Positions 23,355 through 39,854 of a stretch of 64,000 bases of DNA are shown here, one piece after another. The notes beneath the pieces are model-generated. The model was not told the origin of the DNA and made no database searches. It saw only the letters and a list, made by a program, of their open reading frames with translations. Numbering within the stretch: position 1 is the first letter of the stretch; the number at the start of each line of letters is the position of its first letter. A program made the translations under genes and the position numbers. This DNA is from Bryobacteraceae bacterium (GTDB lineage Bacteria; Acidobacteriota; Terriglobia; Bryobacterales; Bryobacteraceae), in contig CAVQOO010000068.1 in assembly GCA_963714395.1 (NCBI GenBank), forward strand, positions 18,728 to 82,727, read 5' to 3'.

Positions 23355-23356
23355 TT

Positions 23357-23806
23357 GTGAATCCCGACATCACCAACCCGGACATCGTTAGTCCGGATAT
23401 TGTCAGTCCCGACATCGTCAACCCGGACATCGTCAGTCCCGACATCACGAATCCTCTCATCACCACCGCCGAGGTCTACAGCCCGACTATCACGAATCCC
23501 GACATCGTCAATCCGGACATCGTCAGCCCCGACATCAGCACAGTTGACATCTCAAGCCCGCAGATCGTAAGTCCGGACATTGTCAGTCCTGACATTGTCA
23601 GTCCCGACATCGTCAACCCGGATATCAGCACGTTCCAGATCATCAATCCGGATATCGTGAGTCCCGACATCGTCAGCCCCGATATTGTGAGCCCGGACAT
23701 CGTGAGCCCGGACATCGTCAACCCGGATATCACGGCTATCCGAATCGTCAGCCCGGACATTGTGAGTCCGGACATCGTGAGTCCGGACATCGGCAACCTG
23801 TCGTCA
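23357..23806. repeat. about 30 tandem 15-bp coding repeats encoding (S/N)PDIV pentapeptides
   Basis: Direct reading: ccggacatcgt(c/g)ag(t/c) units; protein NPDITNPDIVSPDIVSPDIVNPDIV... Confidence 0.9.
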
Positions 23807-26081
23807 GGCGTGACCGACTTCACGTGGAAAATCACCAACAAGGGCAACACCGGCGTCTCCTACAACGCCAAATTGCTCGAGGCGGGTCCGAAGTTCTGCT
23901 GCCCGCAGGGGTGTCAGAGCGCGGGCAACTGCCCAACGGGTTGCTACAAGTGCCAGCTGGTTCTCCGCAGGACGTATCCCACTCCGGCGGCGAACGGATG
24001 TTCTCCGACCGTGAGCGTTCAAAACATCCTGGTCTCAAGCGTTCTCAATCCGAGGCTTCTGGATGCCTCTCAGGGCGACACGCCTGACAACTCTCCCGAT
24101 GAGAAGAACTCGACTCTGGCTCTTGGGCCGGGCGAGGCGGGCCGCATGACGCTGCGGGTGTTTGGCCTCAAGACGGGGACCGTTCCACCCGGGCTCACTC
24201 AGCCTGTCGCTGTGTCCGCTTCCGGTACGGCGGCCAGCGACACTTCCGTTACAATCACAACCTTCTCATTGCCGCCAGGCATGCTGGGGCAGCCCTTCAA
24301 CCAGACCATCACGTCAATCGGCGGCTCCGGTCCACGCGAATCTGGACCGTGTACAGCGGCACACTTCCACCCGGCCTCACTCTGGACCCGTCAACGCAAT
24401 TGATCGCCGGCACGCCCGTGGCCTCGGCCTCGGCCGTGCTGTCTGGAACCCCGACTCAGGGAGGTACGTTCACTTTCACGCTTCAGGTCAAGGACACGCC
24501 GGCCGGGCGCCTGCAGTGTAGAAAAGACAGCGGACTGCGTTCAGCCTCACGTAGACCGCCAGACGTACACACTCACGGTGAACGACTTCAAGCTCTTGTC
24601 CGTGACGCCATCCAAGCTGTTTGCCAAGTCGGGAGACACGATCACGGTCACAGCGGCTGTCACTAACCTCGGTCCCGATGCGGTTGCCAATGTCGCAGCC
24701 GGTCAGCTTCAGCTCAACTCGAACGGATCGACCGCTTCCGCTTCTTGCGGACCGGCGGCGCCGGTTTCCGTGAGTCTGGCCGCCGGGGCTTCGCAGAACT
24801 TCTCCTACGTCTGCTCAGGCTTCAGCGGTAACGGCTCGGTTGCTTTCAGCACGCAGGCGTCGGCCACGCTGAACGGAGGGCCATCATTCCAAACGCCGTC
24901 TGTTGTCCTCGGCGCCGGTCGTGGTCGACAACGTGCAGCCAACATTCAGCCCGGCCGTCATCCTCTCAGGCGGCCAACCCTACACTCCTGGGCCAGGCAA
25001 CTGGACCAGCCAGAACGTAACGGTGACCTTCGCATGTACCGACAGCTCAGGGATTGCCCAACAGCCGCTGAGTCCTCAGACCTTGAGCGCCGAAGGCGCG
25101 AACCAATCCGTCTCGGCTACCTGTGCGGACAATGCCGGCAATAGCACAACCCAATCCGTGACCGGCATCAACATTGACAAGAACCAGCCGCTGATCAGCT
25201 ACACCATGTCAGCTGGCGGGGCCGTCTACACAGCGGGAACCTGGACCAATAAGGCGGTGAGCGTTCTCTTCGCTTGCACGGATACTCTCGGGGGGGCCGT
25301 GCTCGCCCCGGCTACGAATCCCCGGGTTCTGACCACGGAGGGCGCGAACCAGTCGGTGTCCGCGACGTGCACTGACATCTCCGGCAAGTCTGCTACGGCG
25401 ACTGTCTCCGGAATCAACATCGACCTGACTCCGCCGGTGATCACCATCACGACACCGGCCAACGGCGCTTCGTATACGCTGGGCGCGAGCCTGACCACGA
25501 GCTATTCCTGCACCGACCCAATGTCCCCCGTGACATCCTGCACCGGGCCAGTGGCCTCGGGCGGAACTCTGACGCTATCCACGGCCGGACCGGGATCATT
25601 CGCAGTCAGTTCGTCGAATGCCGCAGGCAATACCGCAACTGCTGCATCGAGCTACACTGTCGTCGCTCCCCCGCAGTTCACCTTCGTCGGGTATCTGACG
25701 CCGCTCAAGACCGCCGGTACCTATTCAGGAACGGCGAAACTGGGCTCGGCTGTCCCGGTTAAGTTCCAGATCCTGGACGGCTCGCGAGTCACCGTGTCGA
25801 ACATTGCTGCGGTTGCTTCCATCCGCAGTATCTTCACTGGACGCCCCACTGGCGGGACGTGCCCCATCAGTCTGGCGGGAACGAGCACGGTGCTTTACGC
25901 TCCGACAACCGGCGCCACGGGAGGCAGCACTTTCCGGATCGACACCGGGAACACTTTCATCCTGAACTGGGACTCCACGAGTGTGGCTCCCTTGGGAGTA
26001 GGATGCTACACGGTCGTAACCGAACTCGCACCAGCCTACGGGGGACTGGTCCGGTCGACGAGCATTCAATTAACTCGTTAG
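23357..26081 (+). CDS. large secreted repeat protein ((S/N)PDIV pentapeptide array plus multiple Ig-like/putative-Ig domains), several frameshifts
   Basis: GTG start at 23357. The repeat array is followed by LPPGLTL...GTP...GTFTFTLQVKD (putative Ig domain) and Thr/Ser-rich Ig-like domains in ORFs 24349..24666, 24578..25144 and 24903..26081. It may be contiguous with the upstream BNR protein. Confidence 0.45.
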
Positions 26082-26446: not shown

Positions 26447-29101
26447 TCAAATCGATTTCGGCCTGGATGATCTTGGCGAAGGTGCGAGGAACCGGGCCGA
26501 GCTTTCGAGCCAGCTCAGCGGCAATCGCCTGAGCTCTTGCCTCCTGGCCCAGACTCCAAATGTGAGATTGCGAGCGACCATGGCGATGCCTTCGTCATTG
26601 GTGCCCTCGAGCGCTTTCTGAAATGCAGCGATCGCCGCGCTCCGGTTCCCTTCCATGGCATGTGCTTCGCCGACCAGCGACCATTTCTTGGCGGCAAGCT
26701 CGGGAGTGCCGGCTTTCGCCTCGGCCTCAATCGCCGGGAGGAGGACCGCGAGGGCGTCCTGTGGGCGTCCCTGGTAGAGCGCCAGATCCGCTTCCCCCGC
26801 GGCGGCAAATGAGGCTCCCTGCTCATTAACCGTCTTCATCTGCTGATAAACCTGGCTCGCCTTATCCAGGCTGCCGAGCAACAATTGGGAAACAGCGTTG
26901 GCGAAGTAGCCCTTCATGTACTTCGGATTCTCGGCAATAACCGCGGCGGACTCCCGCGCGGCCGATTCGAATTCCCCGGCGTACAACGCATAGAGAGCCA
27001 CATTGTTACGGTACGGGATGTTCTTTGGATAGACCTCCAGCGCTTTCCGTCCCTCCTCGAGCGCCCGCTGCATGTCGCGCCGCAGGTAATACGCGTAGGC
27101 CAAGTTGCTGCGGCCGGTGGAATCCACGGGGAATTGCTTCACTAGCGCGGTGAATTCCTCGACAGCCCTGCCGGCTTCCATATTGACCAGGTAATATCCG
27201 CCACGAGTCCGGAAGCGCTCACGTTCGCTCATGCGATTGATGTGCGCCATCGACTGGCTGTAGAACTGGAGGGCGAGTTCGCGCTGTCCCAGATTGGCGT
27301 AAACGGCGGCGAGGCTCGAATAGGCGCTGCCGAATCCGGAGTCGATCTGGATGGCTTTCTTGTATTCCTCGATCGCCTGCTGCGCCTTGCCTGCAAACCT
27401 GAATTCCTGGCCCAGAGCATAGCTGTGCGCCGCTTCGATGTTTGTAGTGGTGTAGGTCTCGGCGGCCGCCAGTTTGGCGGATTCCACCGCCGAATCGCCC
27501 AGGGCCTTGCGCAGCGGTCCGGAGAGGAGGCCTACCTCGTTGAGGAAGTCCGCTTTCCCAGCAGGGGAGCTGTCGACTTTGGCGATCTCCTTTCCACTTT
27601 GCGGGTCCACCGCCCGGACTTCGATCAAGTACCGATTGCCGCTCTTCTCGAGTTTTCCCTCCAGAACAACGGAAATCCCCTCGCGGACGGCCACCAGGCG
27701 GGCTCCCGTGCCATCCAACTTGCCGCTCTTCGGATTCAGTTGCTCCACGAGGCGCTTGGCGCGGCCTCGGTCGTATGAATTGACGAAGGACGCGGCCTCC
27801 AGGGAAACACTCAGCGTCGATTCCACGGTTCCGTCAAACACAGGTTCTCCTGTGCCGTTGGTAAAGTCCGCGATGAGGAGTGTCACGATCCTGGGTACTC
27901 CGCCCTGCCCGGAGTCCGAAGGCCGGTTCAGCAAGTAGTATCCGCCGCCGGCAATCGCTGCCACTCCAGTCGCTCCCGCGATGATCCACTTACGACGTGA
28001 GGACGGCCCAGGAGGCGACACCGCGGCGACCGGCACCGAAGGCTTGATTGCCGTCGCAAAAACTGTCGGCATCTGCGAAGAAGTTCGCGGCGTGCGCGGC
28101 CGGCCCAGATAGACATCGAGGTCGCCAATGATGTCGTCCACCGTCTGGTACCGTGTGGCAGGATCCATCTCCATGGCATGGCCGACTATCGCATTCAGCG
28201 CCTCGGGAATGCTCGGATCCAATTCTATTGGCGGCCTTGCTTTTTCGCGGGTCCGGGCCACAAGAGAGCCGACCATCGTCTGCGACGGGAAGGGAACCTG
28301 CCCGGTCAGCATTTCAAACAGGATGACGCCGAGCGCGAAGATGTCGGCGCGGTGGTCGGCGCGCTGGCCCATGGCCTGTTCGGGCGACATGTAGTCCGGG
28401 GTGCCCATGATGACGCCGCTCCGCGTCATTCCGGTATTCTCCATCGAATGCGCGAGGCCGAAGTCCATGACGGCCACCCGCCCGCGGCCGTCCACCATAA
28501 TGTTCTGCGGCTTCAGATCGCGATGGATGACATTCTTGGCGTGGGCCGCGGCCAACCCGAGGCAGACCTCGCGGATGAGAGAGGCGGATTCCTCGGGAGG
28601 AAGCCTTCTTTCGCGCATAATGTCCGTCAGCATGCGGCCTTCGACGAACTCCATCGACAGGAAGCGGAGGGAGCCAGCCGTTCCCAGGTCATACACGCGC
28701 ACTACATTGGGGTGGGCGATCTGGCTCGTCAGGACTACTTCCTGCTTGAAGCGATCGAGCACCTGCCGCTGCGCGGCCAGTTCGGGGCGAATGGTCTTGA
28801 TTGCTACTTGCCGGTTCAGTTCGCGGTCCAATGCCTTGTAGACCGCACCCATGCCGCCCTGCCCTAAGAGCGATTGAATCTCATAACGGTCCGCCAGGAT
28901 GGCGCCCACCTCTAGCGAGGCCCCTTGCGGCGCATCGAAGTCGGCTTCGAAGTTGGAAATCCTCGTTTCGGCGGAAGACTGAAGCCCGATCGCGATGGTC
29001 TCAGAGCCGAGGCCTGGGGCAGTACCGCCGAACAGCGAACTGCATTTCCGGCACTTCTCGGCACCTTCCTCGTTGACAGTTTGACACTCCGGGCAGATCA
29101 C
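26447..29101 (-). CDS. Ser/Thr protein kinase with an N-terminal zinc-ribbon, one TM segment and C-terminal TPR repeats
   Basis: 884-aa ORF. MICPECQTVNEEGAEKCRKCS (zinc ribbon). Kinase motifs GQGGMGAVYKA, HRDLKPQNIMV, DFGLA, MGTPDYMSPEQ. TM segment IIAGATGVAAIAGGGYYLL. TPR-like repeats follow. The 3' end may really continue into ORF 26178..26450 (TPR-like) after a frameshift. Confidence 0.85.
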   Translation of the reverse strand: MICPECQTVNEEGAEKCRKCSSLFGGTAPGLGSETIAIGLQSSAETRISNFEADFDAPQGASLEVGAILADRYEIQSLLGQGGMGAVYKALDRELNRQVAIKTIRPELAAQRQVLDRFKQEVVLTSQIAHPNVVRVYDLGTAGSLRFLSMEFVEGRMLTDIMRERRLPPEESASLIREVCLGLAAAHAKNVIHRDLKPQNIMVDGRGRVAVMDFGLAHSMENTGMTRSGVIMGTPDYMSPEQAMGQRADHRADIFALGVILFEMLTGQVPFPSQTMVGSLVARTREKARPPIELDPSIPEALNAIVGHAMEMDPATRYQTVDDIIGDLDVYLGRPRTPRTSSQMPTVFATAIKPSVPVAAVSPPGPSSRRKWIIAGATGVAAIAGGGYYLLNRPSDSGQGGVPRIVTLLIADFTNGTGEPVFDGTVESTLSVSLEAASFVNSYDRGRAKRLVEQLNPKSGKLDGTGARLVAVREGISVVLEGKLEKSGNRYLIEVRAVDPQSGKEIAKVDSSPAGKADFLNEVGLLSGPLRKALGDSAVESAKLAAAETYTTTNIEAAHSYALGQEFRFAGKAQQAIEEYKKAIQIDSGFGSAYSSLAAVYANLGQRELALQFYSQSMAHINRMSERERFRTRGGYYLVNMEAGRAVEEFTALVKQFPVDSTGRSNLAYAYYLRRDMQRALEEGRKALEVYPKNIPYRNNVALYALYAGEFESAARESAAVIAENPKYMKGYFANAVSQLLLGSLDKASQVYQQMKTVNEQGASFAAAGEADLALYQGRPQDALAVLLPAIEAEAKAGTPELAAKKWSLVGEAHAMEGNRSAAIAAFQKALEGTNDEGIAMVARNLTFGVWARRQELRRLPLSWLESSARFLAPSPRSSRPKSI

Positions 29102-29162
29102 CTTCGTCGGATTCCAGAAGCGATACTGGATCTATTGAAGTTACTATCTTCCGTGCTGGCTA

Positions 29163-30950
29163 TCAAGCGGTGGATTTTGATACAACGGCGCCACCGCGAG
29201 GGGTACGGCGGACAACGACGGCGGTGAAGTCGTCCGACGCGGTGACCGAGCCGGCGAATGCAGCCACTTCGCGGGTCAGCAGATCCACCAGGTCGACCAC
29301 CGGGCAGGTGTGGTTGTCCTTGACCAGATTGAGAAGCCGGCCTTCGCCGAACTCTTCGTCGGTGCCTGTCTGCTCGGCTTCGGTGACGCCGTCGGTGTAC
29401 ATCATCAGGACATCGCCGACTTCCATCCGGCAGCAGTGTTGAGTGAAGGCATACTTCGGCAAAACGCCGAGCACGGGCCCTCCGTCGTCAAGACGAACCA
29501 CCTTGCCATTTGCGCGCACCAGAAGAGGCGGGTTGTGACCCGCGTTGCAGTATGTCACGTCACCGGTGACCGGATCGATCTCGCAAATGAAGAACGTGAT
29601 GAAGCGGTTACCGGGACAGGTGGTGGTAATACTCGAGTTCAGCCGGGTCGTGAGCGCTGCCATCTCGATCTTCTCTTCCAGCAGGACCTGAACGCGGGCC
29701 TGCAGGCCGGTCATCAGCAGGGCGGCGGGCATGCCCTTGCCGGCGACGTCGCCAACGAGGAAAACCTGCTTGCCGTCCGGGCGGAGGAAGAAATCGTAGT
29801 AGTCGCCGCCGACGCTGCGGCAGGCCTCGGTGAAAGCAGCAACATCAAGCCCGTCGATGGACGGCGCGGCGCCCGGCAGCAGGCTCTTCTGAATGTCGGC
29901 GGCCTGCTGCATATCGCGAGCTATGAGCAGGTCGTGTTTCTCGACCTCCAGCAGCCGCGCGTGCTCGATGCGGATGGCCGCGATATTGGCCATCACCGTC
30001 AGCAGGTTCAGATCTTCGGCAGTGAAGGGCCGGACCATGTGCGGCGAGTCGACATAGATGAGTCCGAGCACTGTGTCCTTGGTCTGGAGCGGGACAGCCA
30101 TCATGCTGCGGACCGCTTGCGCGACGATGCTGGCCTGGGCCCGGAGCAACTCGTCGAGCCGGACGTCGCGAACCAGCAGACTCTCCTTCTTGTTGAGGAC
30201 CTGGTCGCGGACAGTGTTGCTGATTTTGAAGCCTTCGCCCTTGGCCGCGCGAGTCTCCAATTGGCCGTTCTCAAGGATGAGCAGGACGCCGCGAGTAGCG
30301 CCGACAGCCTCCACGGCGAGATTCATGATGATTGGGAAGAGTTCGTTCAACGGCCTGTGGCCGGCCAGTTCCTGTCCCGCCCTCACCAGAGGGTGAATGC
30401 GCGAACCGCCGCCAGAGGACCCTCCCGATTGAGTGCTCACCAGCGACTTGCCGGCGCGCATGATGTTGTCCAAATTGGCGATGACGGTGGCGCCGGGCGC
30501 GATCTCCATCGGGGAGTCCACGAACTCCACGCTGCTGCCTCGATCAAGCTCCTCGCTCCTGAACTCGACCAGAAGTGAGCCCGCGGCGACGCGGTCGCCA
30601 GTGAGCAGCATCCGGCGGGCGGTGACGGCCACGCCGTTCACCTTGGTGCCGTTGCGGCTGCCCAGATCGACGACAGCCCAGGAAGAGCCGCTCTTCTCAA
30701 AGGCCAGATGATTCCTGGACAGTCCGGCATCCTCATGAAAACACAAGTCGTTATTGGGCGCACGCCCCAACGTGTAACGTGCCGAGTCGAGGGTTACGAC
30801 TCGGGTTTGTCCAGAAGGAGTGCGGATGTGGAGTTCCGACCTGGTCATGGGGGCTCCAATCAATGTAGCGCGTTCTATCGCCTGCATGACAGTTGCCTTC
30901 ACGATGGGGGACAATGGCCGGAGCGGCGCCGGCGGCGAAAGCTGGAACAA
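29163..30950 (-). CDS. FHA-GAF-PP2C (SpoIIE-like) serine phosphatase
   Basis: 595-aa ORF. FHA region YTLGRAPNNDLCFHEDAGLSRNHLAFEKSGSSWAVVDLGSRNGTKVNG. GAF-like middle. PP2C region GGDYYDFFLRPDGKQVFLVGDVAGKGMPAALLMTGLQA...MYTDGVTEA. Confidence 0.8.
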   Translation of the reverse strand: MFQLSPPAPLRPLSPIVKATVMQAIERATLIGAPMTRSELHIRTPSGQTRVVTLDSARYTLGRAPNNDLCFHEDAGLSRNHLAFEKSGSSWAVVDLGSRNGTKVNGVAVTARRMLLTGDRVAAGSLLVEFRSEELDRGSSVEFVDSPMEIAPGATVIANLDNIMRAGKSLVSTQSGGSSGGGSRIHPLVRAGQELAGHRPLNELFPIIMNLAVEAVGATRGVLLILENGQLETRAAKGEGFKISNTVRDQVLNKKESLLVRDVRLDELLRAQASIVAQAVRSMMAVPLQTKDTVLGLIYVDSPHMVRPFTAEDLNLLTVMANIAAIRIEHARLLEVEKHDLLIARDMQQAADIQKSLLPGAAPSIDGLDVAAFTEACRSVGGDYYDFFLRPDGKQVFLVGDVAGKGMPAALLMTGLQARVQVLLEEKIEMAALTTRLNSSITTTCPGNRFITFFICEIDPVTGDVTYCNAGHNPPLLVRANGKVVRLDDGGPVLGVLPKYAFTQHCCRMEVGDVLMMYTDGVTEAEQTGTDEEFGEGRLLNLVKDNHTCPVVDLVDLLTREVAAFAGSVTASDDFTAVVVRRTPRGGAVVSKSTA

Positions 30951-31099: not shown

Positions 31100-32902
31100 A
31101 TGCAGATGTATGTCTACGCGGGCCTGGCCCTATTAGGGCTGGTGCTGCTCGCTGTATTGAGCAAAGTGTTGTTTGGCTGGGTTCTCATCCGGGAGGACCA
31201 GGTCGGCCACGTGGTTCGGAAGTTCGGCGCGAAGGATCTGCCGCAGGGGCGGATTGTCGCCCTGGAGGGTGAGGCCGGTTATCAGGCGCGTACACTCGCT
31301 CCCGGCGTCCATTTCTGGTATTGGCCGTGGATGTTCAAGGTCGACCGGAAACCAATAGTGGTGGTGAAGCCGGGACAGATTGGCCTGGTGGTGGCCAAGG
31401 ACGGCGACGCGCTGCCGCAGGACAGGATTCTCGCTCGCCGCGTCGATTGCGGGAACTTCCAGGACGCGGAACAATTCCTGCGAAACGGGGGCCAAAAAGG
31501 CAAGCAGAGCGCGGTGCTGACCACCGGAATGTATCGCATCAATCAGGTGCTGTTTGAGATTTTCACCGCCGATGTGACTTCGGTGCCTCACAACAAAGTG
31601 GGCATCCTGACGGCCAGGGACGGCGCTCCCATGCCGGCAGGCCAGATGGCGGCCCCGGTGGTGGGAGGCCATTCGAACTTCCAGGATCCGGAAGCCTTTC
31701 TGCACAATGGCGGATACCGCGGTTTGCAGGAGCAAATCGTGCTGGCCGGCCAGTACAATCTGAATCCGTGGTTCGTCGACGCCGAACTGGAGGAACTGTA
31801 TGAGGTCCCGATCGGGCACGTCGGCGTTGTGGTGAGCTTCGTGGGCAGCGACGAGAAGGACATTTCCGGCGAGTCCTTCACCCACGGCAACATCGTCCCG
31901 CGGGGAGGCAAGGGTGTCTGGAGCGAGCCGCTGTATCCCGGCAAGCATCCGCTGAACCTGCGCTGCATGCGCGTTGAACTGGTACCGACCACGAACATCG
32001 TGCTCAACTGGGCAGACGCCCGAAGCGAGGCGCACAAGCTGGATGAAAAGCTGTCGACGATCACAGTCCGTTCGCGCGACGGCTTCACGTTCAATCTCGA
32101 CGTCAGCCAGATCATCAACATCGGTGCAACCAAGGCGCCATGGGTAATCAGCCGAGTGGGCAGCGTTCGCAACCTGGTGAATCAGGTGCTGGAGCCGCTG
32201 GTGGGCAACTACTTTCGCAACAGCGCGCAGAACTACACGGTGCTCGACTTTCTGTCGGCGCGCAGCGACCGGCAGCGGGAAGCGCGGGAGCACATCAGCC
32301 GGGCGATTCTCGAATACGACGTTCAAAGCGTCGATTCCCTGATCGGCGACATCACACCGCCTGCGGCACTGATGGACACGCTGACCGCGCGCAAACTTGC
32401 GGAGGAACAGAAGAAGACGTTTGAGGTGGAGCGGGAAGCTCAGGAGAGCCGCAAGACGCTGGAAGCGGAGAAGGCGCTGGCCGAAAAGCAGCGCGAACTG
32501 GTCAACGAGGAACAGAATGTGATGATCGCGCAGCGCAAGGCGCAAGCAGCGGTGCGCCATGCCGAAGGCGATTCCTCGGCGATGTCGATCCGCGCCAACG
32601 GCGAGGCGGAGGCCATTCGCCGCCGGGGTACGGCCGAGGCGGAGATCTCGGCCATCAAGGGCGAGAACGAGGGCCGGGCGATTCAGGCTGTCGGTTTGGC
32701 CCGTGCGGAGGCGGCGCGCAAGGGCGTCGAGGCGATGGGCGAGTACTATGGGCTGCTGCAGATTTTCCAATCGCTGGCCGAAAAAGGCATCCGGCTGACT
32801 CCGGATGTCATGGTGGGCGGCACACAGCCAGCGGCATCGGATGCCGTGCTGGCGTTGCTGGCGGCGCAGATGAGCAAAGCGACGCAGCCGAAGCACGATT
32901 GA
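31100..32902 (+). CDS. flotillin-like SPFH/Band-7 membrane protein (YqiK/FloA-like)
   Basis: 600-aa intact ORF preceded by an RBS (caggag). N-terminal TM helix (LALLGLVLLAVL). SPFH region. Long Ala/Glu/Arg/Lys coiled-coil tail (LAEEQKKTFEVEREAQESRKTLEAEKALAEKQRELV...) typical of flotillins. Confidence 0.8.
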   Translation: MQMYVYAGLALLGLVLLAVLSKVLFGWVLIREDQVGHVVRKFGAKDLPQGRIVALEGEAGYQARTLAPGVHFWYWPWMFKVDRKPIVVVKPGQIGLVVAKDGDALPQDRILARRVDCGNFQDAEQFLRNGGQKGKQSAVLTTGMYRINQVLFEIFTADVTSVPHNKVGILTARDGAPMPAGQMAAPVVGGHSNFQDPEAFLHNGGYRGLQEQIVLAGQYNLNPWFVDAELEELYEVPIGHVGVVVSFVGSDEKDISGESFTHGNIVPRGGKGVWSEPLYPGKHPLNLRCMRVELVPTTNIVLNWADARSEAHKLDEKLSTITVRSRDGFTFNLDVSQIINIGATKAPWVISRVGSVRNLVNQVLEPLVGNYFRNSAQNYTVLDFLSARSDRQREAREHISRAILEYDVQSVDSLIGDITPPAALMDTLTARKLAEEQKKTFEVEREAQESRKTLEAEKALAEKQRELVNEEQNVMIAQRKAQAAVRHAEGDSSAMSIRANGEAEAIRRRGTAEAEISAIKGENEGRAIQAVGLARAEAARKGVEAMGEYYGLLQIFQSLAEKGIRLTPDVMVGGTQPAASDAVLALLAAQMSKATQPKHD

Positions 32903-32932: not shown

Positions 32933-34378
32933 GTGCTAATTTTGAAGTTTGGCTCCGCTCACGAGGCGGTTTTCGTGCAGGTATTTCTACAAGGCAAAAT
33001 CCTGGGCGCCGACGGGTTTGTCGAGGCCCACGGAAGTGATCTTCAACAACTCGGCGGGAGTTGTCTCTATATTTCCCTGCTGAGCGAGGCGGTTCCGCGC
33101 GGCCTCCTGGACGCGCTTAAACTGTCGCCGGAGCTGCTGGGCTCCAGCGGCGGCGGCCAGTTTCTTGTCCTGCTGCCAGGCGAAATCCTCGCCGAGGCCA
33201 ATGCCTACCTGACTGAAGCGACGCGACGGCTCGCGGCGTTCTCCGGCAGGCGTTTGAGGCTGGTTTGGGCCTCGACGGAGAACCTGGGAGTATGGAGCGA
33301 CGTCCGGCGCCGTCTCGACGGCGAGATGGTCCATTGGAGCGGCCTGAACGCATTGGAGCCGGACGGATTGTTCGATCCTTTCGTTGACTCACTGCAGGGC
33401 GGCGAGTGGATGGGCAGCTTGTTCGAGAGTCTGCCGGACTCGGCCGCGGCGGTGCTCGATTTCGCAGAACCCGGCTTGCTGCGGCGCGCAGGCGATCCGC
33501 ACGCCGTGGCGACGCACCGGGCATTGAACGATGCCGGGGATGCGCCTGCCACGCTGAAGGACCTGGCCGAACGAGCGCAAGGGCGCAGCGCCTGGGGGAT
33601 TCTGCGAGGCGAAATCGACCAGTATGAGTCGCGGCTGCGGCAGGCACAGAGCGTCGAGGAGTACATGCCGCTGACGGCTTTCTTCAAGCCGTTTTTCACC
33701 GGAGAAGTTCAGGTTCTGTGCATGCAGGGCGCATTCTGGCGGAAGGTGACGGTGCTATCAGCCGGCGGCAACGGCTTTGCGGTGGCCGGTTCGTGGGACG
33801 CGCTGATCGAGTTTGCGCGGGAAATGCAGCGGTTGTATCACCGGACGGCGGAGGAAGTGCTGCGCGAGCAGGCTGGTCCGGAGGCGAAAACGCTCTCGAT
33901 GGGACTCGCCCTGGCCGCGACGGCGGATTCGGCCCCCGCGCCGGTGTGGGTAGAGGCAGGACGTCAATTGAGCGTGGCAAAGTCATCTTCTCGGGACTCT
34001 ATCTCGGTATTTGGCCGTGTTGTGGATTCAAAACAGCTCGCCGAAGCCTCGGATTTGAAGAACCTGATGGTTCGCCTGGTGGACGAGTTTGGGGCAAGCC
34101 CGCAATTCCTCGGGGAGTTGGGAGCGTTTTACCGCGAAACCGACCGGGTTCTGCCGGCACGCAACCAGCAGCGGCAGGCCGATGCGCAGCAGCGTCCTTG
34201 GCGGCTGCATCGCCGGTTGAACCGCGTGCTTGACTCGGAAGGTCGCCACCGTGATTTTCAAAAGGCTCGCGCCGCAGTGCAGGCAGCGTTCCTCACGCGC
34301 GGGCAGGGACAATTGAAGCTGAGGCCCTCCGGCCGCGTCGCCCTGGAATGGGCGCGGCTGGCCAAAGAGGCGGAATAA
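32933..34378 (+). CDS. Cas10-like large subunit (two degenerate palm/cyclase-like domains, no HD domain)
   Basis: GTG start 30 nt after the flotillin stop. ...LLGSSGGGQFLVLLPGE... (near 33140-33185) and ...LSAGGNGFAVAGSWDALIEFAREMQRLYH...TLSMGLALAA (near 33756-33900) mirror the Cas10 GGDD segment (GGDDllv.g.wd.v.ela..i...f...TiSaGi), with GGDD replaced by GGGQ and GGNG. Size of 481 aa. Position at the head of a csm2-3-4-5-like operon. Confidence 0.5.
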   Translation: MLILKFGSAHEAVFVQVFLQGKILGADGFVEAHGSDLQQLGGSCLYISLLSEAVPRGLLDALKLSPELLGSSGGGQFLVLLPGEILAEANAYLTEATRRLAAFSGRRLRLVWASTENLGVWSDVRRRLDGEMVHWSGLNALEPDGLFDPFVDSLQGGEWMGSLFESLPDSAAAVLDFAEPGLLRRAGDPHAVATHRALNDAGDAPATLKDLAERAQGRSAWGILRGEIDQYESRLRQAQSVEEYMPLTAFFKPFFTGEVQVLCMQGAFWRKVTVLSAGGNGFAVAGSWDALIEFAREMQRLYHRTAEEVLREQAGPEAKTLSMGLALAATADSAPAPVWVEAGRQLSVAKSSSRDSISVFGRVVDSKQLAEASDLKNLMVRLVDEFGASPQFLGELGAFYRETDRVLPARNQQRQADAQQRPWRLHRRLNRVLDSEGRHRDFQKARAAVQAAFLTRGQGQLKLRPSGRVALEWARLAKEAE

Positions 34379-34380
34379 TA

Positions 34381-35130
34381 ATGAGCGAAATCGAAGAGCA
34401 GAACCAGAATCTTCCGGAAGAAAATCCGGAACCCAGGCCGGAGCCGGCAGTGGAAGCTCCTCAGGCCGCCGAAGCGCCTGCTGCTGAGGCTCCAGTTGCC
34501 GAGGTTTCGCCGGCGGCATCGCCCGCGGAAGCTCCGGCTGCCGCCGCCGCACCGGCGGCAGGCGAACCTAGGCCGGAGCGTCCTCCCCGCGGCGAAAGAA
34601 GCGATCGCGGACCGCGCCCGGAACGAGGACCTCGCCCTGAGCGCGGTCCCAAGCCTGAACGCAGCGAGCAGCGCCCCGAGCAACGTGGCGGCGAACGTCC
34701 AGGCGGCGGCGACCGCGGTGGAGACCGAGGCAGACCTCCGCTTCGGGGCCGGGAAGGTCCGCGCCCCGGCGGACGCCCGCCCGAGCTGATGCTGGACATC
34801 GATCTCGAAAAGCTGATTCACGACAGCCTCTATCTGGACAACCAGGCCCACACCGTCGTGGTTCGCATGCGCGACATGGACTCGGGCACCCGCAGCCAGC
34901 TTCGCCGGCTGTTCAGCGCCACCCGCCGCGCCTGCCGCGCGGTCGAGTCCGAACGGCAGCACCACTTTGTGATGCTGCGGGCACGCCTGGCCTATACGAT
35001 TGCGCGCCATCAGTTGCGCAGCCTCGATCCGCTGGAAAAGCTTCTGCTCCAGGTCACGCGAAAGAATGACCCGCGCGGCTACGAGCGTTTCCGCGATCTC
35101 TTCGAGGCCATTGTGGCCTACAACGAGTAA
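34381..35130 (+). CDS. Cas11/Csm2-like small subunit candidate with a roughly 130-aa low-complexity Pro/Glu/Arg/Ala-rich N-terminal extension
   Basis: ATG immediately after the cas10-like stop. The N-terminus is repetitive (PERGPRPERGPKPE..., GGDRGGDRGRP). The C-terminal ~110 aa look alpha-helical (LEKLIHDSLYLDNQAHTVVVRMRDM...LRARLAYTIARHQLRSLDPLEKLLLQV...FRDLFEAIVAYNE) at the position where csm2 sits in III-A operons. Confidence 0.4.
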   Translation: MSEIEEQNQNLPEENPEPRPEPAVEAPQAAEAPAAEAPVAEVSPAASPAEAPAAAAAPAAGEPRPERPPRGERSDRGPRPERGPRPERGPKPERSEQRPEQRGGERPGGGDRGGDRGRPPLRGREGPRPGGRPPELMLDIDLEKLIHDSLYLDNQAHTVVVRMRDMDSGTRSQLRRLFSATRRACRAVESERQHHFVMLRARLAYTIARHQLRSLDPLEKLLLQVTRKNDPRGYERFRDLFEAIVAYNE

Positions 35131-35155: not shown

Positions 35156-35989
35156 ATGAGTTCCCATACCGCCGATACGAAGCTCGGCCTGATCGGCAAG
35201 CTCCTGCTCGATGGCGAGCTGATTTGCGACACCGGCCTGCACATCGGTGCGGGCAAAGGCTCGCTCGATTTGGGCGGAGCCGACAATCCGGTCGTCAAGG
35301 ACGCTTTCGGGCGTCCCTACGTCCCTGGCAGTTCACTGCGGGGGCGCATCCGGGCGCTGCTCGAGCAGGCGCACGGCCACGCTGTCGCCTCCGATCTGGT
35401 CTACTTGTCGCGCCGCCGCGGACAGGAAGTCCGAATTCATCAGAGCGACGATCCGGGTGACGAAATCTGCCTGCTTTTCGGGCGCAATCCGGGCCGCATG
35501 GAGCGCGTTTCCGGAGATGCGCTGGAGCCCTCGTCGGCGACGCCAGCGAGGCTCACCGCCTATGACGCTCCGCTGGAGCTGGACTCGATTACAGTGCAGA
35601 TGCGCGAGAATCTCGACGACGAACTGACTGAGGTGAAGAGCGAAAACTCCATCGACAGGCTGACCGCGCAGGCTCTGGCACGCACATTGGAGCGCGTCCC
35701 GGCGGGGGCGAGGTTCCGGGTTCGGTTCGTGATCGACATCCTGTGCGCGGAGGACCGCGAACTGGTGTCGCCATTCGTGGCGGGCATTCGATTGCTGGAA
35801 GACGATTCGCTCGGGGGAGGCGGTTCCAGAGGCAGCGGCCGAGTGCGCTTCACGTCGTGGAAGGTCTCCTGGCGGAACAAGTCCTACTACACAGCCGCCG
35901 GCGCCGAGGCGACACTGGCCTCGGCCGGCACGACAGCCGAACTGCAAGCCGCGGTCGCCGATCAGGAATTCTCCGGACGCCTGGCCTAA
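35156..35989 (+). CDS. Cas7-group RAMP, Csm3-like backbone subunit
   Basis: RBS ggaaggag before the ATG. ...CDTGLHIGAGKGSLDLGGADNPVVKDAFGRPYVPGSSLRGRIRALLE... matches the Csm3 N-terminal signature, including the catalytic-loop Asp in G.DNP..KD and the PxxPGSSxKG motif. The C-terminal glycine-rich loop is LGGGGSRGSGRV. Confidence 0.7.
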   Translation: MSSHTADTKLGLIGKLLLDGELICDTGLHIGAGKGSLDLGGADNPVVKDAFGRPYVPGSSLRGRIRALLEQAHGHAVASDLVYLSRRRGQEVRIHQSDDPGDEICLLFGRNPGRMERVSGDALEPSSATPARLTAYDAPLELDSITVQMRENLDDELTEVKSENSIDRLTAQALARTLERVPAGARFRVRFVIDILCAEDRELVSPFVAGIRLLEDDSLGGGGSRGSGRVRFTSWKVSWRNKSYYTAAGAEATLASAGTTAELQAAVADQEFSGRLA

Positions 35990-37011
35990 TGAACCCCGCC
36001 CTGCTCGTTCGTCTCCGGCCCCTCACGCCGTGGCGCATCGGGAGCGATTCCGGCGCCCGCGAGCAGGCGTCCGCCGTGTATTCCAGCGACACTCTATTCT
36101 CGGCAGTATCCGGGGCATTCCAGCAGCTTGGCTGGCTCGAGGAGTGGCTCGGGGCCACAGTGCGGGGGGTCGAAGATCCCGCCGTGCGATTGACCAGTGC
36201 CTTTCCGTTCCAAAAGGGACTCCTGTATCTGCCGCCTCCCTCGGGGTTGTGGCCGCCGCCCGGAGAAAGCCGTGTGCGCTGGAAGGGCGCCCAACTGCTG
36301 CCCGCGCCGGTCCTGGCCGGACTGCTGCGCGGAGAGATGCCTGGCGAAGAAGAGTGGACCATTGATGGCCAGAGCGCTTGTCTCGTGCCCTCGCGACAAC
36401 GAGGGGCGGCCGGTCCGTATCGATTCCTGCGCCGCTCCCATGCGGCAGTCGACCGGCTTACCGGCGGCATCGCGGAGCCTTATTCCGTCGCTTGCACACA
36501 GTTCGCGCCTGAGGCGGGACTCTGGTGTGCCGCGGAGTTCTCTTCCCACACGGCATATGCGATCTGGTCGCCCAAACTACAGGCGGCGTTCCGGCTATTG
36601 GCCGACTCCGGACTCGGCGGCCTGCGGAGTCGCGGCTTTGGCCGTTCGCGGACCCCACTCTTCCAGGCGGGTACGCTTGCGGAATTGATCTTCGGGGCCG
36701 CGGCGCCAGTGTCTGCCGCCGCGCCTGCCGCATGGTGGCTCCTTTCGCTCTTCTCGCCTGCCGGTGACGACGCGGTCCATTGGGAACGGGGCAGTTACGA
36801 TCTCGTGACCCGCACCGGCCGCGCTGTTGACGGACGGCTGAAGCTGTCGACTCGCATGGTCCGCGAGGGAGGCGTCCTGGTTTCGGATAAGCCCTTGCGA
36901 GGCACGGCGCTCAATGCCGCTCCGCCCGAAGCGCCCCATCCATTGTGGCGCGCGGGTTTCGCCGTCGCCCTGCCGATCGCATGGTCCGGCGCTGGAAGGG
37001 GGGTGGCATGA
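35989..37011 (+). CDS. Cas5-group RAMP, Csm4-like subunit
   Basis: Start overlaps the csm3-like stop (TAATG). N-terminal ...PWRIGSDSGA...YSSDTLFSAVSGAF is Csm4-like. Glycine-rich loop GLGGLRSRGFGRS. Position after csm3 matches the III-A order. Confidence 0.6.
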   Translation: MNPALLVRLRPLTPWRIGSDSGAREQASAVYSSDTLFSAVSGAFQQLGWLEEWLGATVRGVEDPAVRLTSAFPFQKGLLYLPPPSGLWPPPGESRVRWKGAQLLPAPVLAGLLRGEMPGEEEWTIDGQSACLVPSRQRGAAGPYRFLRRSHAAVDRLTGGIAEPYSVACTQFAPEAGLWCAAEFSSHTAYAIWSPKLQAAFRLLADSGLGGLRSRGFGRSRTPLFQAGTLAELIFGAAAPVSAAAPAAWWLLSLFSPAGDDAVHWERGSYDLVTRTGRAVDGRLKLSTRMVREGGVLVSDKPLRGTALNAAPPEAPHPLWRAGFAVALPIAWSGAGRGVA

Positions 37012-38174
37012 CGCGCTACCGTCTCACAGTCTTGACGCCGATGCTGATCGGCGACGGCCAGAGATTGGCCCCGATCGATTACATGGTCTGGAAAGACCAG
37101 GTCAATGTGCTCGACCAGAAGAAGATCTTCCGGCTCCTGGCTAAAAGTCCGCGGCTGGACAGCTACCTGTCCCAAATCCGCCGGGCCGACAAGCTGGACT
37201 TCAACTCCTGGGGCGGCTACGCCCAGAACTATGCGCTGCGCCGCATTCCGCTCGAGTCCCCGGCCCTGGGCCGCGTGTTTGAGCGCACTCTGCCGGAGCA
37301 CCTCTTTCTGCCGACTTTCGCCACCACTCCCTCCGGGAGCCTCCATATCCCGGCCACCGCAATCAAAGGAGCGTTGAGGACAGCGCTGCTGACGCAACGG
37401 GCGACGAACTCCCATTGGGCACAGTTCTCTGAACGGTTGGAAGCCGCCGAACGGGCGCCCAGAAGTCCCGGCGAGATCCTGGAAGCGGCCGTTTTGGGTT
37501 CACAGGGGCAAGCCCGCACTCGGGGGTTCCTGCTGGCCGACTCGGAGCCGCGCCCCGCGGGCGGGCTGACTCGAATCTACCTGACCCGCACGGCCACCCT
37601 CGTCGATCGCGGCGGACGACTCGAACTTGGCTGGAAAACCGCGCCTCGCGGCACGCTGGACGGTAAGCGCGCCGCTGACGCAACGCCAGTCCTGGCTGAA
37701 ATGGCCATTCCGGGGAGTGTGTTCGAAGGCTCGTTCTCCGAGGCGCCATTTTTCCGCCGGACAGAGACCCTGCGCGCCCTGAACTGGAAGGAATCCCCCG
37801 GGGCGCTCCGCTATGCGGAAGCCTCAAACGCATGGGCCGCACGCTGTCTCGCCGCTCAAAGGATCTGGGCCGAGAAGGCCGCGATTCCGGCCGTCATCCG
37901 TTCACTCGATACCCTGGAAGCACGCCGCAAGGATCTGGAAGCCTCGCGCACTGGCTGCCTGGTCTGCTTGGGGTGGGGGACTGGCTATCTGCCCAAGGCC
38001 GCCGATCCGAATCCGGAAGATGAGGTCAAGGACAAAGTTCTGCGCTCGCTTCCGGTGATCGCGTCGGCCATTCGTACTGGCTTGCCCTTTCCCAAGACGA
38101 GGCGGATCGTATTCAGCGCCGATCAGCCGGCGACGCTGCCAGGCTGGGCGGCAATTCAGTTCGAACTCTCTTGA
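37008..38174 (+). CDS. Cas7-group RAMP, Csm5-like subunit
   Basis: ATGA overlap with the preceding gene. ...PSGSLHIPATAIKGALRTALLTQ matches the Csm5 P.IPGSS.KGalRt motif. Glycine-rich loop CLGWGTGY. Confidence 0.6.
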   Translation: MTRYRLTVLTPMLIGDGQRLAPIDYMVWKDQVNVLDQKKIFRLLAKSPRLDSYLSQIRRADKLDFNSWGGYAQNYALRRIPLESPALGRVFERTLPEHLFLPTFATTPSGSLHIPATAIKGALRTALLTQRATNSHWAQFSERLEAAERAPRSPGEILEAAVLGSQGQARTRGFLLADSEPRPAGGLTRIYLTRTATLVDRGGRLELGWKTAPRGTLDGKRAADATPVLAEMAIPGSVFEGSFSEAPFFRRTETLRALNWKESPGALRYAEASNAWAARCLAAQRIWAEKAAIPAVIRSLDTLEARRKDLEASRTGCLVCLGWGTGYLPKAADPNPEDEVKDKVLRSLPVIASAIRTGLPFPKTRRIVFSADQPATLPGWAAIQFELS

Positions 38175-38263
38175 AACACAGCGGAAAGCCCGATCATAGT
38201 AGTCTAGAAGGATAGTGAAGGGACACCAGTCCTTTCTTGTGGGCGGCTGTCAGCGTACCCAAC

Positions 38264-39169
38264 ATGTACAACGCTTTTTTCGGCTTTCGGGAAAATCCAT
38301 TCAACCTCAGCCCGGATCCCGCGTTCCTCTATCGAAGTCCGCAGCACGATGAGGCTCTCGCGAACCTGATCTACGGCGTTCACAGCCGGAAGGGGTTCAT
38401 TGTCCTGACCGGCGAGGTGGGTACAGGCAAGACCACTATGCTCGAGTGTCTCCGGGACTATCTGGAGGCCCAGTATATTGAGTTCGCCTTCATCTTCAAC
38501 TCCAGGATTTCGTCGGACCAGTTTTTCGAGATGATCGCCTACGATCTCGATCTCCGCTGCTCGCACAAGTCCAAGACAGAAGTCCTCTTTGCCCTCAATC
38601 ACCTACTGATCCAGCAGGCCAATCAAGGGCGCACCACGGTGCTAATCGTCGACGAAGCCCATAACCTCGAGTGGGATGTACTCGAGGAGATCCGGCTCCT
38701 GGGAAACCTGGAGAATCCGCGCCTCGGCAAACTCCTGCAGATAGTACTTGCCGGTCAGCCCGAGCTTGACCGGAAACTCGATGCCCCGAACCTCCGGCAG
38801 CTCAAGCAGCGCATCGTGCTCAGGTGTTCTCTATCTCCGTTCCAGCCGTCCGACACCGAAGCCTACATTCGAGCCCGGCTCGACAAGGCGGGCATGCCCG
38901 ATCAGAGCGTGTTTTCGGCTCCATTGATACGGGAGATTCACACGCGAAGTCAGGGGATTCCCCGCATTATCAATGCGCTCTGCGACAACATGCTCCTGAC
39001 GTGCTTCGCTCTGGAACGACGCGATGCCTCGGCTGAAATGCTCGAGGAGATCTGCAGGGACATGCGGCTCGAGTGGCCGGGGATGCCGCAAGTTCGTGGC
39101 GCACGAGGCGGATCGGATCGGCCCGGGTCTGTGGACACGACCGCTTCGCTGTCTTCTCACATGGACTGA
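38264..39169 (+). CDS. ExeA/GspA-like AAA+ ATPase (PEP-CTERM-locus ATPase-like family)
   Basis: MYNAFFGFRENPFNLSPDPAFLYRSPQHDEALANLIYGVHSRKGFIVLTGEVGTGKTTMLECL closely follows the ExeA N-terminal pattern and Walker A. Walker B is VLIVDEAHNL. Intact 301-aa ORF, 90 nt downstream of the csm5-like gene. Confidence 0.8.
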   Translation: MYNAFFGFRENPFNLSPDPAFLYRSPQHDEALANLIYGVHSRKGFIVLTGEVGTGKTTMLECLRDYLEAQYIEFAFIFNSRISSDQFFEMIAYDLDLRCSHKSKTEVLFALNHLLIQQANQGRTTVLIVDEAHNLEWDVLEEIRLLGNLENPRLGKLLQIVLAGQPELDRKLDAPNLRQLKQRIVLRCSLSPFQPSDTEAYIRARLDKAGMPDQSVFSAPLIREIHTRSQGIPRIINALCDNMLLTCFALERRDASAEMLEEICRDMRLEWPGMPQVRGARGGSDRPGSVDTTASLSSHMD

Positions 39170-39409: not shown

Positions 39410-39854
39410 ATGTCCAAGCTGCTTGGCATTAGTCTTATTTGTGCTACGCTCCTTTTGATTGGGCTTTCCGCTACTGCGGGAACGCTCCCAATTGGTACGG
39501 ATGCAAACTCTCTCTCCCTTGGCCGCGATTGCCTCCTCCCGAATCCCTGGGATGATAAGCTCTCCCTCGGCCCGATGCCTCCTCCCGAATCCCTGGGATG
39601 ATAAGCTCTTCCTCGGCCCGATGCCTCCTCCCAATCCCTGGGATGATAAGCTCTTCCTCGGCCCGATGCCTCCTCCCAATCCCTGGGATGATAAGCTCTT
39701 CCTCGGCCCGATGCCTCCTCCGAATCCCTGGGATGATAAGCTAGCAGGCCTTCTCCGCCGAATTTTGCGAACCAAAGCCGACGAGTTTCCCCCCTGGGGG
39801 GCAGCCTGTCGGCTTTCATTTTGCTTCCGATTATTATTGTGTAAGCCAAGCTGA
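39410..39854 (+). CDS. possible small secreted repeat protein (15-aa PNPWDDKLFLGPMPP units) running through the tandem repeat
   Basis: RBS-like aggtaaaacctcag before the ATG. The signal-peptide-like N-terminus MSKLLGISLICATLLLIGLSATAG is in ORF 39410..39601. Coding continuity through the repeat requires the 46-bp units to be 1-nt indel errors (ORF 39459..39854 then reads ...PNPWDDKLFLGPMPPPNPWDDKLFLGPMPP...). Confidence 0.3.
39530..39750. repeat. perfect tandem direct repeat, 45/46-bp unit, about 4.7 copies, no spacers
   Basis: Units gcctcctcc(c)(g)aatccctgggatgataagctct(t/c)cctcggcccgat begin at 39530, 39576, 39622, 39667 and 39712. The periods are 46, 46, 45 and 45, and the copies are otherwise identical. 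Confidence 0.9.

Follow-up and report, generated by a model that had tools for sequence, protein, structure and literature searches.

The open reading frame (ORF) at positions 32933-34378 (+) of the 64-kb stretch of Bryobacteraceae DNA analysed here (the window) encodes a genuine homologue of Cas10/Csm1, with a similarity far beyond chance. It is, with a probability of roughly 0.68, the large subunit of a type III-A-derived Csm ribonucleoprotein (Cas10-Csm2-Csm3-Csm4-Csm5) in which Cas10 has neither an HD domain nor a functional cyclase and is kept as a scaffold, with the Csm3 RNase as output. According to this proposal, the entire family of short Cas10 proteins would have lost both its HD domain and its zinc finger and be reduced to a palm1, linker, palm2 and D4 architecture, with the GDxD...GGDD/E motifs mostly intact. 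The clade of the window protein carries GEID...GG[N/S/H/G]G and an Arg-to-Ser change in palm1, and its Cas10 would no longer make cyclic oligoadenylate (cOA) or cut DNA. It is presumably retained as the structural head that, as in known Csm structures, pairs with Csm4 at the guide's 5' end and seeds the Csm2/Csm3 filament, and the sole predicted catalysis, suggested by an invariant loop, would be the cutting by Csm3 of RNA complementary to the bound guide. Three aspects are of most interest: an apparently recent, clade-specific loss, the full constraint on the disarmed protein, and the conservation of an array-less chromosomal module throughout Bryobacterales. The first and the last of these had escaped a preliminary description of this DNA.

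Identity, start and architecture of the short Cas10

The features of the gene and its product are listed below, with residues in the 481-aa numbering of the reported ORF.

32934-32942 (+): extended -10 promoter box (TG-c-TAATTT) of the csm operon, conserved in ~80 orthologous loci
32975-34378 (+; reported ORF from 32933): cas10/csm1, short form, identified by Pfam, NCBIfam, PADLOC, PDB profile and Foldseek
Residues ~15-135: palm1
Residues 136-205: reduced linker, no zinc finger
Residues 206-365: palm2, with GEID at 226-229 and GGNG at 278-281
Residues 366-481: helical D4 domain

Profile, sequence and structure comparisons agree on the identity of the ORF, which runs without interruption for the 481 aa reported. 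Pfam returns a Cas10-Cmr2_palm2 match (32.1 bits, cutoff 27) and a weak Csm1_B match on palm1, and the NCBIfam Cas10/Csm1 model TIGR02578 matches at E 2.3e-28 over model positions ~490-753 and a weak palm1 stretch, its 99.3 bits not reaching the equivalog cutoff of 170. Four Cas10/Cas10a models of PADLOC match as well, PDB searches by phmmer and by a family profile recover Csm1 chains only (profile E 1e-13 to 2.8e-16), and an AlphaFold2 model (predicted local distance difference test, pLDDT, 79.3; predicted template-modelling score 0.79) used as a Foldseek query has Csm1 chains for all of its top 50 matches (E ~1e-16, TMq ~0.65). Thus the Cas10-like assignment of the preliminary description is borne out by Pfam, NCBIfam, PDB profile and Foldseek alike.

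The gene most likely begins at GTG 32975, giving a 467-aa protein and a gene spanning 32975-34378, because the reported start, GTG 32933, lies inside the conserved -10 box. This box (TGTGCTA(G/A)ATT) is found ~40 nt 5' of the cas10 start in ~80 orthologous loci, whose cas10 genes all start at a GTGCAG/ATG corresponding to window residue 15. Concomitantly, a Shine-Dalgarno GAGG is found 8 nt 5' of GTG 32975, homologues of 462-490 aa align to the window protein from residue ~15 onwards, and residues 1-12 of the model are disordered (pLDDT <50). The protein is thus short and palm-first, as had been described, but probably 467 rather than 481 aa long. The -10 boxes before cas10 and in the spacer between csm5 and the ATPase gene both have the form TGnTAnnnT, and a small hairpin (32955-32969) overlaps the Shine-Dalgarno of cas10.

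Two palm domains followed by a helical D4 domain, as in Cas10/Csm1, are present, the model showing two beta-alpha-beta-beta-alpha-beta units followed by a helical tail. What is missing lies N-terminal to and between the palms. The first residues of the family profile align to residues ~255-273 of solved Csm1, and an exhaustive search of 1.84 billion representative sequences recovered ~25 full-length clusters of 450-530 aa scoring >330 bits, followed by canonical Csm1 proteins of 757-817 aa at no more than 165 bits, aligned from residue ~250-275 to the C-terminus. In a MAFFT alignment these canonical relatives possess the HD motifs (LxHDIGKF...HH...D), located upstream of the region shared with the short family, and a CxxC...CxxC zinc finger, neither of which occurs in the short family. 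The absence of an HD domain noted in the preliminary description therefore holds for the short family as a whole, which aligns only from Csm1 residue ~250-275. The window Cas10 lacks the N-terminal HD nuclease domain and has no HD motif, or even an HD dipeptide, elsewhere in its sequence, and by the same alignment with 757-817-aa Csm1 the zinc finger between the palms is deleted across the entire short family. Nor is there a split HD gene upstream, since the 5' neighbour of cas10 encodes an SPFH/Band-7 protein unrelated to HD.

This flotillin-like gene (31100-32902, +; 600 aa) ends 30 nt before the reported ORF and has no counterpart beside the module in any of 86 related loci, ~20 of which carry a pair of VWA genes upstream instead. 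Separately, three distant matches of the representative search (P0213, P0258 and P0266, 527-600 aa) are HD-less or HD-reduced Cas10 proteins outside the short family that keep the zinc finger and GGDD.

Palm motifs, clade-specific loss and selection

The preliminary description had read both GGDD-type motifs as degenerate, a view that stands for palm2 and not for palm1. In palm2, SAGGNGFAVAG aligns column by column with YSGGDDvFvvG of solved Csm1, and WGILRGEIDQYE aligns onto lgVlRaDvDnLG, with the first metal-binding Asp changed to Glu (GEID as against GDxD). Both the catalytic GGDD and the upstream GDxD Asp are thereby replaced. In palm1, SSGGGQFLVLLP aligns onto YSGGGHaYLLLP, and its GGGQ is normal rather than degenerate, because canonical Csm1 has GGGH or GGGN at this position, never GGDD, and GGGQ is the norm of the short family (111 of 121 sequences). 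Judged from these alignments there is a single degenerate GGDD-type motif, that of palm2. The window protein also has Ser in place of a palm1 Arg that both the family and canonical Csm1 conserve (RGRS).

Mutation of GGDD to GGAA abolishes cOA synthesis in Csm and Cmr complexes. Since the palm2 Asp-Asp is replaced, and GEID accompanies it, cOA synthesis has very probably been lost in the window lineage, and the earlier prediction that this Cas10 does not signal is upheld on the strength of that mutant biochemistry.

The family context places this change. A protein database clustered at 90% identity holds 1,418 matches, the best 120 of which are 446-515 aa long except for one 351-aa fragment; the named sources among these 120 are Bryobacteraceae, Solibacter and other Acidobacteria, and family members are labelled 'Csm1' or 'hypothetical protein'. 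A relative is encoded in 491 GTDB species genomes, and the best 80 of these species are nearly all Bryobacterales, Paludibaculum fermentans included. A look-up of the exact window protein in an assembly index gave no match. Motifs were counted in a 121-sequence alignment and in 83 genomic loci. In the former, the GDxD Asp and the first GGDD Asp are each kept in 110 of 121 sequences, the second GGDD position being D in 70 and E in 40; in the latter, 78 of 83 have GGDD or GGDE, and the combination of GEID and GG[N/H/G]G is confined to the window and three others (L001, L005, L006). With these motifs intact in 78 of 83 related loci, the failure of the palm2 motif is clade-specific.

The inactivated clade consists of the window protein, eight database sequences (P0001-P0008) and the three loci just named, at 75-93% identity, all with GEID...GG[N/S/H/G]G. 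Residue 280 varies among N, S, H and G across the clade and therefore looks like a site released from constraint. Throughout the clade, twelve residues that other family members conserve at a level of at least 88% have changed, D227E, D280x and R43S among them, the last lying in the palm1 'GRS' motif common to canonical Csm1, and 117 of 135 conserved columns are retained. As far as the motifs tell, the cyclase site was lost recently and in a single small clade, the family being cyclase-intact otherwise. Sporadic and apparently independent partial losses occur in the cyclase-intact parts of the family (P0059, P0090, P0098, P0116 and L075), with the motifs GGNE + GNVD, GSGD, GADN, GDDG and GGND.

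Selection on the inactivated gene was gauged by the ratio of nonsynonymous to synonymous substitution rates (dN/dS, Nei-Gojobori). Within the inactivated clade, cas10 gives 0.085-0.113 (nonsynonymous and synonymous difference proportions, pN and pS, of 0.08-0.16 and 0.54-0.67), compared with 0.077-0.141 in cyclase-intact clades of similar divergence, and csm2-csm5 give 0.03-0.18 within the clade and up to 0.33 against more distant relatives, all of these values being approximate because dS is saturated in several comparisons. Measured against the intact clades, the cas10 of the inactivated clade shows no sign of relaxed constraint.

These figures bear on the notion that the locus is a decaying remnant of a former CRISPR-Cas system, a pseudogene in progress, as has been proposed for Solibacter usitatus Ellin6076. 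The complete genome of that organism was reported in 2011 to have no CRISPR, and its adjacent Cas genes, Acid_0892 along with Acid_0893 and Acid_0895, were called leftovers (PMC3174227). Loss of the HD domain, zinc finger and catalytic Asp and the lack of an array would fit such decay, as does that published opinion, but ORFs are intact in all loci, the dN/dS of cas10 (~0.1) and of the other csm genes in the inactivated clade is low, most of the conserved columns are kept, and the promoter and translational coupling are conserved. Given the absence of relaxed constraint the pseudogene reading is rejected, and we regard it as very improbable. The Ellin6076 genes probably represent the same conserved module; if they do, purifying selection contradicts the 'remnant' interpretation there too.

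The csm operon, its neighbours and possible sources of guides

Four genes downstream of cas10 complete the module, followed by a gene for an AAA+ ATPase.

34381-35130 (+): csm2 (Cas11 small subunit); Pfam Csm2_III-A E 4e-10, TIGR01870 39.8 bits (cutoff 30.6)
35156-35989 (+): csm3 (Cas7 backbone RNase); TIGR02582 179.8 bits (cutoff 90), PADLOC Csm3 E 1.7e-54
35989-37011 (+): csm4 (Cas5, Cas10 partner); TIGR01903 108.4 bits (cutoff 55), Pfam Csm4_C
37008-38174 (+): csm5 (Cas7-like cap); TIGR01899 38.7 bits (cutoff 38.3), PADLOC Csm5 E 2.6e-16
38171-38200 (+): promoter-like site in the csm5-ATPase spacer, a TGnTAnnAT extended -10 box conserved across loci
38264-39169 (+): ExeA/GspA-like AAA_22 ATPase; TIGR03015

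Csm2, Csm3, Csm4 and Csm5 all score above the curated NCBIfam III-A cutoffs, and the order cas10-csm2-csm3-csm4-csm5 is kept in every sufficiently long locus (60+ loci). The genes are tightly packed: csm2 starts 3 nt past the cas10 stop, as in orthologues (median gap 3 nt), and the starts of csm4 and csm5 overlap the stops of csm3 and csm4, respectively. A comparison with III-C, III-D and III-F, suggested in the preliminary description, proved to be the wrong frame of reference, since all subunits match III-A (Csm) models and the nearest full-length relatives are Csm1 proteins of 757-817 aa.

The RNase activity of Csm3 depends on a catalytic Asp in a loop, numbered D33 in both S. thermophilus and S. 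epidermidis. The window Csm3 has the loop GGADNPVVKD, which we take to be the equivalent of this D33 loop, and which is identical in 73 of 74 loci, the remaining one having a single V to I change. Because the loop is essentially invariant, guide-directed RNA cleavage is the only activity predicted for the window complex, and the earlier suggestion of a complex acting as an RNase through its Cas7 backbone would be a reasonable reading.

Canonical Csm2 is ~120-140 aa long. In the window, the Pfam and TIGR01870 matches of Csm2 both fall on residues ~165-259, preceded by a low-complexity extension of ~150 aa (34381-34840) rich in P, E, A, R and G with PRPERG-like repeats, and the median length of Csm2 in the family is 236 aa, with a range of 150-313 aa once a single outlier of 114 aa, probably an artefact of start calling, is set aside.

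The preliminary description had put forward the AAA+ ATPase as a possible partner of the complex, and it might indeed be imagined as an effector replacing the HD and cOA outputs. Located on the same strand after csm5, usually at a distance of 40-200 nt, it is found there in 50 of 63 informative loci, although the outer flanks and the genes upstream of cas10 vary. Several observations argue in the other direction. The ATPase has its own conserved extended -10 promoter, and its best match is to a family of ExeA-like ATPases associated with the XrtA/PEP-CTERM system (TIGR03015, E 1.4e-85, positions 1-268 of 269), with a score of 287 bits that lies under the equivalog cutoff of 324.5 and marks it as a subfamily or close paralogue. 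With 70-86% identity as against 43-80% for the Cas proteins, it is the better conserved, in a housekeeping-like manner; it is often followed by its own gene for a small secreted repeat protein, and is conserved equally whether the cyclase is intact or dead. Finally, 13 loci have the full csm module with unrelated genes in place of the ATPase, with Pfam matches to cupin, two-component, peptidase, amidase and transposase families. This suggests a frequent but separable neighbour, and a functional partnership, weakly favoured by its frequency, appears improbable.

The small gene following the ATPase (39410-39854, +) encodes a signal-peptide protein with 15-aa repeats (PPPNPWDDKLFLGPM), formed by five 45-nt units in a tandem repeat at 39512-39742. 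Its first unit is 46 nt long, so that the reading frame breaks in the window, by frameshift or sequencing error; in L085, L007, L009 and L025 the AAA_22 gene is followed by intact orthologues, which have a 45-nt period as well. The 45-nt repeat was also considered as a spacer-less guide array and was rejected as such, since it encodes this signal-peptide protein with its 15-aa repeats and differs synonymously between loci.

No CRISPR array was found by TRF, a repeat finder and a 14-mer periodicity scan, which covered the 64 kb of the window and, for 86 loci, the sequence up to 10 kb from the module; the only periodic signals in the window and these loci were coding tandem repeats. Cas6, Cas1, Cas2, CARF and SAVED gave no Pfam match among the screened window ORFs (compositionally likely genes and long ORFs across the 64 kb), and Cas6, Cas1, Cas2 and CARF gave none in the three Pfam-annotated loci (L001, L085 and L086). 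The flanks of the other loci were assessed by gene clustering, and all-against-all clustering of flank ORFs revealed no conserved neighbour or effector beyond the module, the ATPase and the lineage-limited upstream VWA pair. The absence of a nearby CARF/SAVED gene had been offered in the preliminary description as fitting the dead cyclase. The absence itself holds for the screened window ORFs, but it is not specific evidence for the dead motif because the ~80 cyclase-intact relatives (GGDD/GGDE) likewise have no sensor gene nearby.

Rfam identifies two tRNA genes and nothing else in the window. A guide-RNA gene hidden in the module was considered and rejected, given the median gap of 3 nt between cas10 and csm2, the promoter occupying the csm5-ATPase gap, and an Rfam result limited to tRNAs. 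An origin in mobile elements was likewise rejected, no relatives having been found among viral contigs or plasmids. The window neighbours are housekeeping and envelope genes (PEPCK, LeuA-like, SelA, a kinase/phosphatase pair and PEP-CTERM proteins).

How the complex might obtain a guide allows for two further accounts. The first holds that this is a conventional antiviral III-A effector that borrows CRISPR RNAs (crRNAs) and Cas6 processing in trans, and that has dropped signalling to rely on cleavage of target RNA. Array-less type III loci using crRNAs in trans are known, and III-G has been discussed in these terms (PMC12669027); moreover, the crRNA-handling subunits Csm3, Csm4 and Csm5 are all conserved, and the inspection covered 10 kb on either side in each relative and 64 kb of the window genome. 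Against this stand the 80+ loci with no array, cas6 or adaptation gene within 10 kb, flanks made up of housekeeping genes rather than defence islands, and the lack of relatives on viral contigs and plasmids. A module that 491 species genomes share, whose promoter is conserved and whose neighbours diverge along with it, does not resemble patchy, mobile defence loci, and Ellin6076, if its genes are indeed this module, is reported to carry Cas genes with no CRISPR at all (PMC3174227). We give this account clearly less than even odds.

The second account views the module as a type III effector exapted for an array-independent host function, in which a guide of other than CRISPR origin, or RNA recognition of its own, would lead it to particular RNAs, cellular or foreign, for binding or cleavage. 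It may further be supposed that in most Bryobacterales Cas10 signals to a sensor encoded elsewhere, and that the window clade has dispensed with this signalling. Such a function would suit an order-wide, chromosomal and non-mobile module with its own conserved promoter, whose five genes are all under strong purifying selection and whose 80+ loci have no arrays, cas6 or adaptation genes; the reported state of Ellin6076 (PMC3174227) and the unusual disordered Arg/Gly/Pro-rich extension of Csm2 point the same way. However, no candidate guide RNA gene was found, the gaps within the module being tiny and Rfam finding only the two tRNA genes, and vertical inheritance is deduced from taxonomy labels and co-divergence. 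This proposal is a tentative one, to which we give clearly less than even odds. The same applies to its more specific form, held with equal reserve, that the Bryobacterales cas10-csm2-5 module is a domesticated, vertically inherited and array-independent machine for RNA binding and cleavage, whose guide or target would not be of CRISPR origin and which may act in regulation. The signalling arm of the module would then be dispensable, because the clade has very probably lost signalling yet keeps all subunits under full purifying selection.

The preferred interpretation, a III-A-derived Csm complex built around a disarmed Cas10, must itself be weighed against several points. Loss of cyclase activity is read from the motifs alone, and since Glu227 and Asp229 are retained, a residual or altered nucleotidyl-transfer chemistry is formally possible. 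Cyclase-intact relatives, too, lack a nearby sensor that would indicate the normal output of the family. Neither the window nor the 80+ related loci offer a CRISPR array or cas6 as guide source, and because no such source was found, we infer even the assembly of an RNA-guided complex. The saturation of dS (>1) in several comparisons also weighs here, with pN/pS values of 0.14-0.25 still denoting constraint.

Two further regions of the window were noted in passing. On the minus strand, 26447-30950 encodes a Ser/Thr kinase with TPR repeats (884 aa) and an FHA-GAF-PP2C (SpoIIE) phosphatase (595 aa), divergent from the SPFH-csm side. At 23344-23823, within an ORF at 23357-24403 (+), a 15-nt unit occurs ~28 times in tandem and codes for PDIVS-type pentapeptides; a weak Extensin-like match is the only Pfam match of this ORF, and the adjacent ORFs 22764-23354 and 24903-26081 have none.

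Comparison with known systems

No description of this HD-less, array-less Bryobacterales Cas10 family was found in the searchable literature. By its gene content and nearest relatives the system is, as far as sequences allow a classification, a III-A derivative, and canonical III-A Csm1 is its natural point of reference (S. epidermidis, S. thermophilus, T. onnurineus, L. lactis and M. canettii; PDB 7uzw, 6ifk, 6o73, 6xn3 and 8wfx). The two share the palm1-palm2-D4 core, the palm1 GGG[H/Q], the strand and helix motifs of palm2, and an operon with Csm2-Csm5. They differ in that canonical Csm1 measures ~750-815 aa whereas the window Cas10, at 467 aa, is without the ~250-aa HD domain and the zinc finger, has GEID...GGNG in palm2 where the canonical protein has GDxD...GGDD, and has no adjacent array, cas6 or csm6.

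Cas10 of III-D is also commonly HD-less, but III-D carries Csx10 and Csx19 beside several different Cas7 genes, and its cyclase is usually active. The HD-less large subunit is thus a shared feature, while the window gene set is that of Csm2-5, and the III-D Cas7 models of PADLOC match far less well than its Csm3 models (E 3.9e-15 versus 1.7e-54). III-C differs from the Csm set of the window in having Cmr-type subunits. The mCpol protein of the Panoptes system likewise represents a miniaturised Cas10-related palm protein, but it is a stand-alone, active di-adenylate cyclase that is accompanied by a 2TM-beta toxin and has no Csm subunits (PMC12657230), whereas the window Cas10 has two palms, lies in a Csm operon and appears to be dead; identity with mCpol was rejected on gene content.

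Parallels are also found among type III systems that do not signal. LdCsm of Lactobacillus delbrueckii (PMC7214462, PMC8287949) resembles the window system in combining a III-A gene set with the absence of a cOA pathway and CARF effector; its HD DNase is reported to have stayed active and to be what confers immunity, unlike the window system, which is without HD and would have no nuclease borne by Cas10. III-G and III-H also have replaced catalytic palm residues and no CARF/SAVED genes, and III-G is array-less as well. Yet in these subtypes the inactive cyclase goes together with a working HD domain and a Cas7 that has lost its catalytic Asp, and the window system presents the opposite arrangement, with no HD domain and an invariant Csm3 Asp. 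The Cas7_IIIg and Cas7_IIIh models of PADLOC give marginal matches only, the subunits matching Csm rather than Cmr, Csx26 or III-H models, and membership of III-G, III-H or III-I was rejected on HD and Cas7 features and gene content.

These comparisons define what may be learned from the family. Cas10 is what defines a type III system, and signalling is predicted for ~97% of Cas10 proteins (PMC12669027). In the known subtypes with a dead cyclase, an HD nuclease makes up for the loss. The window Cas10, predicted to have neither activity yet conserved as strongly as its active relatives, would therefore constitute a natural experiment on a purely structural role of Cas10. The family at large, HD-less, with no nearby array, chromosomal and spread over 491 species genomes from Acidobacteria that are abundant in soil, is a candidate for an exapted, non-defence use of type III machinery. 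If the module does work without arrays, this raises the question of which RNA guides it, and it would offer a compact, collateral-free Csm scaffold for RNA targeting.

The III-E effector gRAMP/Cas7-11 has followed a different route, losing Cas10 entirely, fusing its Cas7 domains and recruiting the protease Csx29. Like the window system it is a type III derivative with guide-directed RNA cleavage and no nuclease or cyclase output from Cas10, the cleavage being in the window a predicted one. Unlike III-E, the window system keeps a multi-subunit Csm complex together with what appears to be a disarmed Cas10.

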